Below are positions 9,560-15,470 of a stretch of DNA of 64,000 nt, in pieces. The stretch comes from an uncultured beta proteobacterium (lineage in GTDB: Bacteria > Pseudomonadota > Gammaproteobacteria > Burkholderiales > JAEUMW01), in the NCBI GenBank assembly GCA_963719715.1, contig CAVRDD010000049.1:314000-377999 (forward strand), written 5' to 3'. A model generated the notes under the pieces. That model was not told the origin of the DNA and searched no databases. It worked only from the letters and a program-made list of their open reading frames with translations. The position numbers and the translations under genes were made by a program. Numbering within the stretch: the stretch's first letter is position 1; every line of letters starts with the position of its first letter.

Positions 9560-9868
9560 TGTCTGGCGTGGCTCCTCCCTCGACTCGCGGGCCGCGAAGC
9601 GGCCCGGGAAACATCTGACACCGATCGAACGCCGGCTGGAGGGCGCAGTGTACCGAAAAATCAAGTCCAGCCGAAAACACAGGCACGACTTTTTTGGATC
9701 GATCGGTCCGTAATCGCGCTCCGGCGGTGCAAGGGGACTTCTTACTTGAGATTTGTCAAAAGAAAGAAAAAAGGCCCGGCAGCGCCGGGCCTTTCGAGTC
9801 GGCCCCCGAGCGACGGGGGCCACGACATTGGAACCCGGACTTACATGTCCATGTCACCCATGCCGCCC
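9560..9868 (-). repeat. Direct repeat copy 1: groEL 3' end + hairpin + terminator + conserved promoter/leader element
   Basis: 9841-9868 matches the last 28 nt of groEL (15443-15470) at 27/28 positions; 9621-9645 is identical to 15235-15259; TACCGAAAAATCA and TGTCTGnCGTGGC are also shared. Confidence 0.85.
9762..9795 (-). terminator. Intrinsic terminator after the duplicated groEL 3' end
   Basis: AGGCCCGGC-loop-GCCGGGCCT followed by a T-tract on the minus strand. Confidence 0.8.
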
Positions 9869-10083
9869 CTTCGTGGGGCGAGGTGCCGGGAAACCCAATC
9901 CGCATAGGCGTGGCCAGCGAACAGGGTGACCTGGAAGAAAACCATGCAGACCGACCACACGGCTGCAGACCCGCCGAACCAGGGCAGGATTTGCTTGGCG
10001 ATCAGGGGCTGGACCAGAAAAAGCAGGAAGGCGCTCGAGAAAATCGTCCCTGCGAAAAGTAGCTTGGAACCGGAAGTGTGCAT
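9841..10083 (-). pseudogene. 5' fragment of a fused membrane/spermidine-synthase-family gene joined in frame to the groEL tail
   Basis: FAGTIFSSAFLLFLVQPLIAKQILPWFGGSAAVWSVCMVFFQ is the typical N-terminus of this long family. It ends after about 72 aa in GGMGDMDM*, identical to the GroEL C-terminus. Confidence 0.8.
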
Positions 10084-10225
10084 CGGGCTGGATGGGGACC
10101 CGGATGGCTACGGCGCTCTTCGTTCCAGAGCGGCCGCCAATCATGTCGTCCGAGCGGCATCATAGGGACAACGGGACTGACGCGCAATTGCCGGCGACCC
10201 CGCAGTGGGTTCACCATAGTCCGGA

Positions 10226-11338
10226 ATGGCAACTGCGCTGCGCAGGTACCGATGTTCCTGGCGTGACGGAAACCGGGTCGAACTGCTCGTCGACGGTCCG
10301 ACGTTCTTTGCGCGCATGCTCGATTGCATTGCGGGCGCACATCGGGTCGTTCAGCTGGAGTTCTATCTCTTCGAATCGGGCGCGGTCGCCGACCGCTTCA
10401 TCGATGCGCTGACGGCCGCCGCCGCGCGGGGTGTGACGGTGAAGGTGCTGCTCGACGATTTCGGCGCGCTCGACCTCTCGAATCGCGATCGTGGGCGTCT
10501 CGTGGCAGCGGGTGTCGAGCTCGCGTTCTACAACCGCCTGCACTTCAGCCGCTGGCTTAACAACCTGTTTCGCAATCACCGCAAGCTTCTGCTGGTGGAC
10601 GAGCAGCGAGCCTTCGTCGGCGGCGCCGGCATCACCGACGCGTTCGATCCGCCCGACCCGGGTCGGCACCCTTGGCGGGAAACCATGGTCGACATCAAGG
10701 GTCCGGTGGTGCGGGACTGGCAAGCGCTGTTCGCCGAGTCGTGGCTGCGGATGACCGGGCAGGATCTCGCGGCCGAGCCGACGCCCCCGGCCCTGGATAT
10801 CGGCGTGCGCGGCCGCATCGCGGCGACCAATACCGACATCAAGCGCTCCGTCATCGCCCGTGCCCGGAGGGCGCGGACCCGCGTCTGGATCGCGACCGCG
10901 TACTTCGTCCCGTCCTGGAAGCTGCTCCGCGCGCTGCGCCGGGCGGCTGCCCACGGCGCCGACGTGAGGCTGCTGCTCCCCGGCCCGCTGACGGACCATC
11001 CGGCCGTGCGCCACGCGGGACGGCGATACTATGCCCGACTGCTGCGCAACCGCGTGCGCATCTTCGAGTACCAGCCCCGGGTGATGCACGCCAAGACCGC
11101 GCTCTGCGATCGCTGGGTGTCGATCGGCTCGAGCAATCTCGACCGGTGGAATCTACGCTGGAACCTCGAAGCGAATCAGGAGGTGGAAGACCAAGGCTTC
11201 GCCGCGCAGGTGCAGGCCATGTTCGAAGCGGATTTTCGCGAAAGCGTGGAATGGCATCACGCGAGCTGGGAACGACGTCCATGGCATGTCCGTTTGCGGG
11301 AGTATGTCTGGGGCATCGTGGCGCGCTGGCTGACGTGA
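10226..11338 (+). CDS. Cardiolipin synthase / phospholipase D (ClsB-like)
   Basis: Two HKD motifs (HRKLLLVD, HAKTALCD), plus GNRVELLVDG and GSSNLD. Confidence 0.9.
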   Translation: MATALRRYRCSWRDGNRVELLVDGPTFFARMLDCIAGAHRVVQLEFYLFESGAVADRFIDALTAAAARGVTVKVLLDDFGALDLSNRDRGRLVAAGVELAFYNRLHFSRWLNNLFRNHRKLLLVDEQRAFVGGAGITDAFDPPDPGRHPWRETMVDIKGPVVRDWQALFAESWLRMTGQDLAAEPTPPALDIGVRGRIAATNTDIKRSVIARARRARTRVWIATAYFVPSWKLLRALRRAAAHGADVRLLLPGPLTDHPAVRHAGRRYYARLLRNRVRIFEYQPRVMHAKTALCDRWVSIGSSNLDRWNLRWNLEANQEVEDQGFAAQVQAMFEADFRESVEWHHASWERRPWHVRLREYVWGIVARWLT

Positions 11339-11360
11339 CCGCGGATCGAAGGCGACGGGT

Positions 11361-13037: not shown

Positions 13038-13050
13038 GCGCCAGACTGAC

Positions 13051-13719
13051 ATGCGCCTCCTCGTCGTCGAAGACGATCCGCTCCTGGGCGATGGGCTGCA
13101 GGCCGGTCTGCGCCAAGCGGGGTTCGACGTCGACTGGACGCAGGACGGCATTGCGGCCCGACTCGCGCTCACAACACAACCCTACGCTGCGGTCGTCCTC
13201 GATCTCGGTCTGCCCCGCCTGGACGGGCTCGCGCTCCTGCGAACACTGCGGGCTTCAGGGAACAAAGTGCCCGTGCTGATCCTGACCGCGCGCGATGCCC
13301 TCGACGATCGCGTGAAAGGTCTCGACGGCGGTGCCGATGACTATGTCGTCAAGCCGATCGACCTGCAGGAGCTGGGCGCACGCCTCCGGGCCCTCGTGCG
13401 TCGCTCGAAGGGTGAAGCTGCGGGGACGCTGCGGGTGGGCGATGTCGAGGTGGAGCCAGCTGCGCGAACCGTTTCGTTTCGCGGCGCGCACGTCGAGCTC
13501 CAGCCGCGGGAGTTCGCCCTCCTGCACGAGTTCATGCTGAACGCCGGTCGCGTGCTGTCGCGCGAGCAATTGCAGGACCGACTCTACGCCTGGGGCGAGG
13601 AGATCGGCAGCAACGCCGTCGAAGTGCACGTTCATCACCTGCGCCGCAAGCTTGCTCCGGACGTGATCCGGACCGTACGCGGAGTCGGCTACCTCATGCC
13701 CCGCGATCAACGTGGCTGA
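13051..13719 (+). CDS. OmpR-family response regulator (QseB/PmrA-like)
   Basis: MRLLVVEDD, LDLGLP, GADDYVVKP and IRTVRGVGY. Confidence 0.93.
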   Translation: MRLLVVEDDPLLGDGLQAGLRQAGFDVDWTQDGIAARLALTTQPYAAVVLDLGLPRLDGLALLRTLRASGNKVPVLILTARDALDDRVKGLDGGADDYVVKPIDLQELGARLRALVRRSKGEAAGTLRVGDVEVEPAARTVSFRGAHVELQPREFALLHEFMLNAGRVLSREQLQDRLYAWGEEIGSNAVEVHVHHLRRKLAPDVIRTVRGVGYLMPRDQRG

Positions 13720-15061
13720 GCAAGCTCGGCGACCGTCGATCCGGCGCCAATTGCTCGTCCTGCTCCTCGGGGCGACTGCGATCATCTGGCTTGCGACCGG
13801 CGTCGTAAGCTATCTGGACGCCCGTCACGAGGCCGAGGAACTGCTCGACGCCCATCTGGCCCAGTCCGCCGCGCTGCTCGTTGTTCAGGTCGGTCATGAC
13901 GTCGACGAGATCGATACCGATCATGCGCCGCAGCTGCACAAGTATGCCCGGCAAGCCGCCTTCCAGGTCTGGGAAGACGGGAGTGTCCTGCGCCTGCACT
14001 CGGTGAGCGCACCCGACACGCGGCTCTCCCCCAAAGAAGAGGGGTTCAGCAATTCACAGGTCGAAGGGCGGCGCTGGCGCGTCTTCAGCACGTGGGACGC
14101 GGAGCGTCGCCTTCTCGTACAGGTCGGTGAGCAACAGCTCGCCCGCGACGAGATCACCGGCAGCATTGCCAAGAACCTGTTGCTGCCGTTGTTTGCCGCC
14201 CTGCCGCTCCTCGCCGCGCTCATCTGGCTCGCGGTAGCGTGGGCGATCCGTCCGGTCAAGGCCCTGGGTCATCAGGTATCGGCGCGAGCGCCGGACAATC
14301 TGGCGCCGATCGTCCTGCCAGACGCGCCAGTGGAGCTCGAACCGCTGCTTGCCCGGCTGAATGACCTATTCGCCCGAGTCAGCCAGTCGCTCGAGAACGA
14401 GCGGCGGTTTACGGCGGACGCTGCCCATGAGCTGCGCACACCTATCGCGGCGTTGAAAGTCCAGGCCCAGGTTGCCTGGGGAGCGTCCGATAACGAGGAA
14501 CGTCGGCATGCTTTAGCCAACGTGATCCTTGGTTGCGATCGCGCATCCCATCTCGTGGATCAGCTCCTGACGCTAGCGCGCCTGGATCCTACCGGGGGGA
14601 GCAAAACGCTGGAACCCTGTGATGTCCATGCCCTCGCGCGATCGGTGCTGTCGCAGGTCGCCCCTCTTGCGCTTGAAAGATCCGTAGAGGTGGAATTGGC
14701 ACCGGCGCCACCTGCTGTCGCACGGGCCAACCCCGCCCTGATGGGGGTCCTGCTGCGCAACCTGATCGACAATGCCGTTCGCTACAGTCCGGCAGGCACG
14801 ACGGTGCGCGTCGAGGTCAGTTCAGACGCCGCAGCGATTCGGCTCACGGTGGTAGACGAAGGTCCCGGCGTGCCGGAAAGCGAACTCGACCGGTTGGGCG
14901 AACGCTTCCATCGACTTCCCGGTATGACAACGCCGGGAAGCGGTCTCGGCCTGTCCATCGTACGGCGCATCGCCGAGATCTGCGGCGCGCGCGTGCGCTT
15001 CGCACCGGGTCCCGACGGAAAGGGGTTGAAAGTCGAGGTGATCTTCCCCTGCAAAAACTGA
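13712..15061 (+). CDS. Sensor histidine kinase (QseC-like)
   Basis: Two TM helices, FTADAAHELRTP, NLIDNAVRYS, DEGPG and GSGLGLSIV. Confidence 0.93.
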   Translation: MAEQARRPSIRRQLLVLLLGATAIIWLATGVVSYLDARHEAEELLDAHLAQSAALLVVQVGHDVDEIDTDHAPQLHKYARQAAFQVWEDGSVLRLHSVSAPDTRLSPKEEGFSNSQVEGRRWRVFSTWDAERRLLVQVGEQQLARDEITGSIAKNLLLPLFAALPLLAALIWLAVAWAIRPVKALGHQVSARAPDNLAPIVLPDAPVELEPLLARLNDLFARVSQSLENERRFTADAAHELRTPIAALKVQAQVAWGASDNEERRHALANVILGCDRASHLVDQLLTLARLDPTGGSKTLEPCDVHALARSVLSQVAPLALERSVEVELAPAPPAVARANPALMGVLLRNLIDNAVRYSPAGTTVRVEVSSDAAAIRLTVVDEGPGVPESELDRLGERFHRLPGMTTPGSGLGLSIVRRIAEICGARVRFAPGPDGKGLKVEVIFPCKN

Positions 15062-15179
15062 CGGCCGCGGGTCTTAAATCCCACGGTAGTCGACATCAAG
15101 CAGGTTAGCCCGGCGGCCAGTCGCTAACGCGCAGTCCCGTTATGCCCCAGAGCCACAGCACCGTCATTTCGGAGAACCA

Positions 15180-15470
15180 TGTCTGACGTGGCCTCCCCTC
15201 CCAAAGTGCCCGCAGCCCTGACAATGATCTGTTCCCGATCGAACGCCGGCTGGAGGGCGAAGCTTACCGAAAAATCAGGTAGCGCCGGAAAGATACGTCG
15301 ACTCTGAGGATCGAGACCAAGGGTGCTGAGAAGCCCGACTCCGCTGCAGCCGAGAAGACCAAAGAAAAGGCCCGGTGGAGACCGGGCCTTCGAGCAACCG
15401 TGTCCCCGTCGAAACGGGGACGCGGCAAGACTCCTGCGGGTATTACATATCCATGTCACCCATGCCGCCC
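15180..15470 (-). repeat. Direct repeat copy 2, at the intact groEL 3' end
   Basis: Same order as copy 1: groEL end, hairpin GTCCCCGT..ACGGGGAC (15402-15421), terminator (15361-15392), conserved core 15235-15277 and TGTCTGACGTGGC. Confidence 0.85.

Follow-up and report, generated by a model that had tools for sequence, protein, structure and literature searches.

How does a block of accessory genes come to lie between an intact chaperonin gene and a second, isolated copy of that gene's last few codons? The question is raised by a 64,000-nt stretch of DNA from an uncultured member of the Burkholderiales (positions 314,000 to 377,999 of contig CAVRDD010000049.1, assembly GCA_963719715.1), referred to here as the window. 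Its source genome, G000, is a metagenome-assembled draft of 56 contigs and 3.70 Mb that is 65% complete. The minus strand of the window carries groEL (15443–17077), an intact gene of 544 aa with a Cpn60_TCP1 domain, and the last 28 nt of that gene (15443–15470) are found again at 9841–9868. Between the two copies lie the truncated start of a membrane gene, cls, the genes for an SHP-type cytochrome c, a dihaem cytochrome c (DHC) and a cytochrome b561 family protein, and a two-component system. Comparison with five other species of the genus (G001–G005) points to an answer that we consider probable: one event of homology-facilitated illegitimate recombination (HFIR) between two species of the genus, in which groEL served as the handle.

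The repeated groEL end and its two spacers

When up to three mismatches are allowed, the 28-mer matches the window at two places only: exactly at 15443–15470, and with a single mismatch (27 of 28 nt identical) at 9841–9868. Shuffled sequence produced a match in 0 of 100 trials, for a chance expectation of 0. The mismatch, GAT against GAC, affects an Asp codon and is synonymous in the groEL frame; both tails encode GGMGDMDM. The orphan tail at 9841–9868, on the minus strand, consists of one base, the codons for this peptide, and a stop. It carries GAC, as do G003 and G004, and the groEL of G000 carries GAT, as does G005. The orphan tail appears to be the resident copy of the groEL end, pushed aside by incoming DNA.

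The similarity continues beyond the coding sequence. On the 3′ side of each tail runs a homologous stretch of approximately 290–314 nt with a hairpin, a terminator, and a 65-nt island; in an alignment of 9555–9868 with 15181–15470, 210 of 276 columns are identical, against a mean of 163.6 (sd 4.5, maximum 176) in 200 shuffles. The first spacer copy (9555–9840, minus strand), of putative recipient type, has its hairpin at 9801–9821, its terminator at 9769–9795, and its island at 9613–9677; the second (15181–15442, minus strand), of putative donor type, has the same features at 15402–15421, 15366–15391, and 15227–15291, respectively. The GC-rich hairpins were read directly from the minus-strand sequence, and a terminator scan identified a terminator-like stem with a T-run in each spacer. 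A first-pass annotation of the window had recorded both the repeated tail, with its synonymous mismatch, and the common minus-strand layout behind it, and both observations hold. A 311-nt query against the whole assembly found no further match better than E 0.15.

The first spacer aligns with the spacer between groEL and ppdK in G003, reaching the start of ppdK, within one longer match (query positions 1–389) at 73% identity. Judged from these alignments, the two copies look like orthologous groEL-downstream spacers, one from the recipient species and one from the donor species, and not like a duplication that decayed in place; such an origin would account for their divergence around conserved islands. 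It would also agree with the remark in the first-pass annotation that a diverged repeat of approximately 300 bp is odd for a simple duplication of an attachment (att) site.

The 65-nt island is 83% identical between the two spacers (E 2e-12), with flanking sequence that is far less alike. Because it occurs behind groEL in G003, in both window copies, and in half-deleted form in G005, the island is best understood as part of the ancestral groEL–ppdK spacer that the donor clade has retained; the donor clade's own neighborhood changed at about 15181. An Rfam scan of 9000–18000 with E up to 1 gave no match on the island, and only two sub-threshold, terminator-like matches elsewhere (suhB/mmgR at 21.2 bits, with a gathering threshold of 41, and BjrC68 at 19 bits, with a threshold of 39). 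The consensus fold of three island sequences has 18 predicted pairs, with a compensatory change in 0 of them; a scan of both spacers for sigma-70-type promoters returned 0 sites; and the island's 25-mer core had 0 exact matches in collections of genome and metagenome contigs, from which records near G000 may have been excluded. The island might act in the leader or promoter of ppdK, though this is speculative.

Relatives and the two boundaries of the block

Among the relatives, G003 represents an empty site, of the kind that the first-pass annotation had proposed looking for: groES and groEL are followed by the spacer and ppdK, and then by a CsgG-like gene and an SBP gene, an arrangement also seen at the left side of the window. 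The ppdK of the window is 93% identical in amino acid sequence to the G003 gene directly behind groEL, is of a type found in G003 only among the other genomes of the genus, and belongs to the recipient lineage as its resident gene behind groEL. In G005, groEL is followed instead by a different spacer (spacer′), and then by genes for a histidine kinase, a response regulator, cytochrome b561, DHC, and SHP, by cls and the membrane gene, and finally by AraC, acyl-CoA-dehydrogenase-like, and flavin reductase genes. G004 has cls directly after groEL (80% nucleotide identity to the cls of the window), with AraC, dehydrogenase-like, and flavin reductase genes further on. The two genomes are 78.4% identical to each other over the stretch from flavin reductase to AraC, 80.0% in cls, and 84.6% over groESL and backbone. 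Because these neighbor genes are shared, and cls is shared at backbone-level identity, the block seems to be at home in the G004/G005 clade, as part of its native synteny. The last layout is that of G002, with tRNA-Phe and a DUF3987 protein behind groEL. Of the five genomes in which the region behind groEL can be read, four differ in what it contains (ppdK; cls; two-component system, cytochromes, and cls; tRNA-Phe and an island), and groEL itself gives one match in every genome of the genus, G000 included, that in G001 being cut by a contig end.

Two of these neighborhoods have features of their own. In G002 (L031, 7795–12212), groEL is followed by tRNA-Phe at 8072–8147 and by the gene for the DUF3987 protein, which is 890 aa long, with two small open reading frames (ORFs) in between that have no Pfam match; this stretch looks like an island at a tRNA gene. 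G004 (C101) and G005 (C11) hold a different ppdK, 54% identical in amino acid sequence, at another locus, and lack the groEL-linked type.

Sequence identity sets the block apart from its surroundings. Over the 10.6-kb backbone beyond groES, the window is 85% identical to G003, 78–80% to G005, 80% to G004, and 72–76% to G002 and G001. On the ppdK side, identity to G003 is 86% at 6625–9868 and 85.6% at 4965–6480; in groESL, the values are 87% for G003 and 87.7% for G005. By these measures G003 appears to be the nearest relative, with an even divergence of about 14–15% across the regions compared. The cargo (9872–15056, 5189 nt), however, is 97.5% identical to G005. The cargo might nevertheless be ancestral to the G000/G003 clade and have been lost in G003 by recombination between the tail and spacer repeats, which would produce precisely the layout seen in G003, with groEL followed by a spacer of the first type. 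We regard this as very unlikely. An identity of 97.5% to G005, when G000 diverges on the backbone by 14–15% from G003 and by 20–22% from G005, indicates that the block entered after G000 and G003 split, and the truncated membrane gene marks the G000 form as derived from a G005-like form. The cargo thus seems to be far younger in G000 than the split from G003, and not ancestral to this pair.

On the groEL side, the transition falls within the gene. Over the groEL body (15546–17077), the window agrees with G003 at 1399 of 1532 positions (91.3%) and with G005 at 1328 of 1532 (86.7%). Between 15471 and 15545 the counts are 67 of 75 for G003 and 69 of 75 for G005; in the 28-nt tail of groEL they are 25 and 28 of 28; and in the adjoining spacer (15253–15442) they are 98 of 192 (51%) and 183 of 191 (95.8%). 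In sliding 150-nt windows, identity to G005 ranges from 81% to 91% along groEL and from 93% to 98% from about 15575 onwards, and identity to G003 falls from 85–96% to about 50% across the same switch. Taken at the 3′ end of groEL by itself, the rise against G005 is from 81–87% to 93–98%, and the drop against G003 is from 85–91% to 51–81%. The pattern suggests one crossover within the last ~150 nt of groEL, in a homologous crossover zone at 15443–15593 (minus strand) where identity changes from G003-like to G005-like; this boundary would lie in sequence that is homologous between donor and recipient. It had been proposed from the window alone that a relative's DNA entered at the groEL end with its own tail, terminator, and spacer, and the G005-like spacer, at 95.8% identity, supports this proposal.

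The far boundary is of another kind. The start of the membrane gene (9872–10083, minus strand), comprising approximately 71 codons at 95.8% amino acid identity to the start of the G005 gene, is cut at the joint: similarity to G005 ends at 9872, similarity to groEL starts at 9868, and the 3-nt filler between them (9869–9871, AAG on the minus strand) matches neither. The G005 gene extends well past the point at which the window copy is cut, and its continuation is unrelated to the window sequence. An 80-codon ORF (9841–10083, minus strand) runs through the joint, beginning with the first ~71 codons of the membrane gene and ending, in the groEL frame, with GGMGDMDM and the stop. Because sequences without homology to one another meet here—membrane gene, filler, groEL tail—the joint of codon ~71 to the filler and the resident tail appears to be illegitimate. 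The comparison is made with relatives in place of the true parents, and later point changes at the joint are possible.

In G005 itself, the membrane gene (L028, 3416–5417) lies in two overlapping frames, 4059–5417 and 3416–4456, through a frameshift or an assembly error. It is of a fused MFS/spermidine-synthase type (NF037959, 49.7 bits on the downstream ORF). No full-length copy was found in G000, G001, G002, or G004, and a 47-residue match was found in G003, in genomes that are 65–97% complete.

G000 is assembled from a metagenome into 56 contigs, and donor-like relatives occur in similar habitats (run X4); two co-occurring strains could have been falsely joined at the conserved groEL end. 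Logan contigs, which were built with a different assembler, bear on this possibility: 20 runs contain part of the stretch, and four of these (X1–X4) were compared. The junction 9868/9869, where the first-pass annotation had allowed for a misassembly, is bridged by contigs from X1 (9805–10406, with 0 differences), X2 (9838–10112), and X3 (9821–10328), and an X1 contig also bridges the histidine kinase, spacer′, and groEL (13222–15568). The joint includes the novel AAG and offers no shared word of k-mer length; because of these novel bases, and because the 28-nt repeat is mismatched and shorter than the assembler's word, a false join is unlikely, and a chimeric assembly is hardly credible as the explanation of the locus. 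X4, from a second study, contains a donor-like organism at 95–99% identity. One of its contigs runs on at 9872, where its 30 loose letters are the exact continuation of the G005 membrane gene, and a second (14057–15481) includes the complete spacer′, with the parts that G005 has lost. A 27-mer across the joint returned 0 exact matches in metagenome contigs and 0 in genome contigs, and apart from the Logan contigs no other assembly showed this joint.

The proposed exchange, its alternatives, and known systems

The proposed exchange may be reconstructed from what is observed: the layouts of both parental types, the tract at 97.5% identity, the change of type within groEL, the joint between sequences without homology, and the contigs that cross it. 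The recipient would have had groES, groEL, the spacer, and ppdK, in the layout that its nearest relative G003 still has. The donor would have been a G005-like species of the genus, in which groES, groEL, spacer′, the histidine kinase, response regulator, cytochrome b561, DHC, and SHP genes, cls, and the membrane gene followed one another as ordinary chromosomal synteny. A donor fragment would have paired with the recipient through the highly conserved groEL, with the exchange resolved in the last ~150 nt; the non-homologous end of the fragment, broken at approximately codon 71 of the membrane gene, would have been joined through the 3-nt filler to a point 28 nt before the groEL stop. The upstream part of the product would then consist of groEL, with a resident body and a donor end, the donor terminator and spacer, and six intact donor genes; the far part would consist of the membrane-gene stump in frame with the resident GGMGDMDM and stop, and then the resident terminator, spacer, and ppdK. 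Such an exchange would require no recombinase, and the foreign tract would measure about 5.6 kb. The truncation and the synteny suggest that transfer ran from the donor to the G000 lineage; the exchange may have been a single step, and it may have depended on RecA. It is likely that groEL remained intact with a donor terminator and that the sequence upstream of ppdK, with the resident groEL terminator in it, was preserved. The ORF of the stump is probably a nonfunctional relic.

Several points weigh against this reconstruction. Neither relative is an actual parent: G005 differs by 2.5% from the cargo and lacks two stretches of spacer′, and G003 differs by 14–15%. Among the last eight informative groEL sites (15539–15449), six are G005-like and two are G003-like, and the crossover therefore has no exact placement. 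A maximum chi-square analysis of informative sites places the strongest breakpoint at 17045/17021 (reached in 0 of 2000 permutations), near the start of groEL and not at the 3′ crossover, because groES is G005/G004-like; the 3′ crossover is argued from the contrast between groEL body and spacer and not from this statistic. No microhomology is visible at the far joint, which has three unmatched bases. X1, X2, and X3 belong to one study, in which the source sample is perhaps included, and they therefore count as support against misassembly and not as independent recurrence. Finally, with the assembly at 65% completeness, a second groEL is possible in the unassembled part, and a two-step history would give an identical product.

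The groESL operon also shows a contrast at its other end. Across 17021–17417, which takes in groES and ~50 nt at the start of groEL, G005-like bases occupy 44 of 56 informative sites; in the groEL body, 123 of 174 sites are G003-like. groES is 92.9% identical to G005, 94.6% to G004, and 89.1% to G003. Behind this contrast lies either a mosaic structure of groESL that is of older date or a divergence confined to G003.

A two-step history could have passed through a merodiploid, in which a long donor fragment or a duplication first placed groESL, cargo, and membrane gene in tandem with groESL and ppdK, and the spare copy was then lost by a deletion that began in the membrane gene and stopped 28 nt short of the end of the second groEL. 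Beyond the identity of the product and the incompleteness of the assembly, this path has in its favor that at least one genome of the order (G076) has three groEL paralogs. We consider it unlikely. Each of the six genomes of the genus has a single groEL match, an observation that tells equally against the suggestion, made with the first-pass annotation, that the copy at 9841–9868 remains from a deleted second groEL paralog. Further, the surviving groEL is resident over its body and donor-type at its end only, where a surviving donor copy would look different, and two rare events would be needed rather than one.

The HFIR reconstruction departs from the first-pass annotation over the role of the groEL tail, which had been taken for a site of gene capture or integration. 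Integrative elements that target tRNA genes or the 3′ ends of genes, including integrase-encoding islands and integrative and conjugative elements, duplicate the 3′ end on the far side of the insert and restore the target. In the window, a duplicated gene 3′ end likewise brackets an insert beside a restored gene, and an element with groEL as its att site could have been mobilised in trans by a recombinase encoded elsewhere. The evidence makes site-specific integration highly improbable, and indeed brings it close to refuted. No integrase, recombinase, or transposase domain was found by Pfam in the 11 ORFs of 9841–15061 or in 12 flanking ORFs (23 ORFs in all, within 1–30 kb), in agreement with the cargo list of the first-pass annotation, which had named no recombinase. 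A tRNA scan found no tRNA gene in window positions 1–30000, and therefore no tRNA-type att site. The far end falls, like a random break, partway through a gene whose sequence goes on in G005 and X4, and is therefore no element end; because of this, and because the block is native in G005 and G004 as ordinary synteny, the cargo does not form a discrete element. The repeat at its flanks is 290–314 nt long and made up of orthologous spacers that have diverged, unlike a short att core. Of the two routes of entry that the first-pass annotation had left open, homology-anchored recombination is favored by the switch in groEL and the non-homologous far joint; mobilisation in trans is not.

Recurrence, too, speaks against an integration site. 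A degenerate groEL-tail motif, searched with up to one mismatch in 401 genomes of the order, was present in 127 (126 of 400 without G000), and a reversed control pattern had no match. The motif occurred twice in G000 and G076 only, and each of the two G076 copies is the end of a full-length groEL paralog, the paralogs being on separate contigs; an orphan tail of the kind seen here was found in 0 of the 400 other genomes. These counts include two unpublished genomes (G293 and G378, with one match each), and a 41-genome search includes a third (G031); the conclusions are independent of all three.

HFIR has been described in Streptococcus pneumoniae, Acinetobacter baylyi, Pseudomonas stutzeri, and E. 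coli conjugation (PMC3240628). Kirchberger et al. (2017; PMC5361080) invoke it for natural loci at which incoming effector–immunity modules are anchored by a conserved upstream region, and for the strings of orphaned 3′ regions at rhs loci. The groEL locus resembles HFIR in that no mobile-element recombinase is needed and foreign genes beside an anchor are captured; in that the donor has the anchor and the foreign DNA contiguous (G005, with 97.5% identity over 5189 nt, and X4 contigs with the same layout); and in that one boundary, the groEL end, is homologous, and the other, where membrane gene, AAG, and tail meet, is not. It differs in being a natural case between species of an uncultured genus, reconstructed from genomes, and not a laboratory cross; in the length of the tract, at ~5.6 kb with six intact genes; and in the position of the joint inside the anchor gene, through which the gene end is duplicated with no visible deletion in the recipient. 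The joint itself, with a 3-nt filler and no visible microhomology, is a further difference; in experimental HFIR, microhomology of a few bases is usual at such joints.

C-terminal displacement, reportedly described at rhs loci by Jackson and colleagues in 2009 (PMC2935791, as cited by Kirchberger et al.), offers another comparison. At rhs loci and at effector–immunity loci of type VI secretion systems, as at groEL, an incoming gene end with new DNA displaces the resident 3′ end, which remains downstream as an orphan (here the GAC tail, with the GAT tail on groEL). At groEL, however, both tails encode the same peptide, so the anchor gene is not diversified; the orphan is only 28 nt long and marks a single event rather than an array; the cargo is respiratory, lipid-related, and regulatory (a two-component system), not toxin–immunity pairs; and the anchor is an essential chaperonin.

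Laboratory work has described HFIR well, but in natural genomes the process has mostly been inferred and not shown. At this locus all the pieces can still be found—a relative with the empty site, another that resembles the donor, a population of donor-like type in a separate metagenome, a homologous switch, and an illegitimate joint with an orphan tail—and the locus would therefore stand as a clean natural example of integrase-free block transfer between species that are ~20% apart. It suggests no new mechanism; the event is of a known kind, unusually well documented in nature. The orphan 3′ end of a conserved gene is a simple signature that can be searched for at other genes, and it was unique to G000 in the survey of 401 genomes. 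A broader interpretation, which we hold to be doubtful, is that conserved housekeeping gene ends such as that of groEL act as one-sided handles by which accessory blocks pass between species ~20% apart without mobile-element machinery, and that the variable region downstream of groEL, together with a second insert on the other flank of groESL (described below), reflects repeated exchanges. If this were true, a search for orphan gene tails could serve to count natural HFIR events.

Genes of the block and its flanks

The resident gene beyond the first spacer, ppdK (6696–9485, minus strand), encodes pyruvate, phosphate dikinase (TIGR01828, 1280 bits; Pfam PPDK_N, PEP-utilizers, and PEP-utilizers_C). 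Within the block, the genes between the membrane-gene stump and the second spacer all lie on the plus strand. The first, cls (10226–11338), encodes a ClsB-like phospholipase D/cardiolipin synthase with PLDc_2 and PLDc domains (NF008427 at 232 bits, below the cut-off) and is 97.7% identical in amino acid sequence to G005. The SHP-type cytochrome c (DUF1924; 11424–11840) matches PF09086 at 1.9e-37. The ORF listed for DHC (11557–12342) matches PF09626 at 1.4e-37 over residues 142–252, and the true start of the gene probably lies after the SHP stop. The cytochrome b561 family protein (12339–13037) matches PF01292 at 7.9e-23. An OmpR-type response regulator follows (12925–13719 as listed, with Response_reg and Trans_reg_C domains and the receiver domain beginning at residue 46), at 99.2% amino acid identity to G005, and then a sensor histidine kinase (13712–15061; 2CSK_N, HisKA, and HATPase_c) at 97.5% identity, which is convergent with groEL. 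The cargo genes are intact, with an overall pN/pS of ~0.3 relative to G005; the value for cls is inflated by an indel near the 3′ end of the gene, and only the overall figure is used. The ratio suggests that the cargo genes have been under purifying selection since they parted from G005.

On the other side of groEL, groES (17124–17417, minus strand; Cpn10, 6.9e-37) is followed by a further irregularity. Approximately 1.4 kb (17543–18934) separate the upstream region of groES from the backbone gene that comes next; this sequence has no match in G001–G005, and its 314-aa ORF (17729–18673, plus strand) has no Pfam or NCBIfam match. The GC content of this stretch is 0.535–0.56, against 0.62–0.66 around it; it is a second lineage-specific insert, on the opposite flank of groESL.

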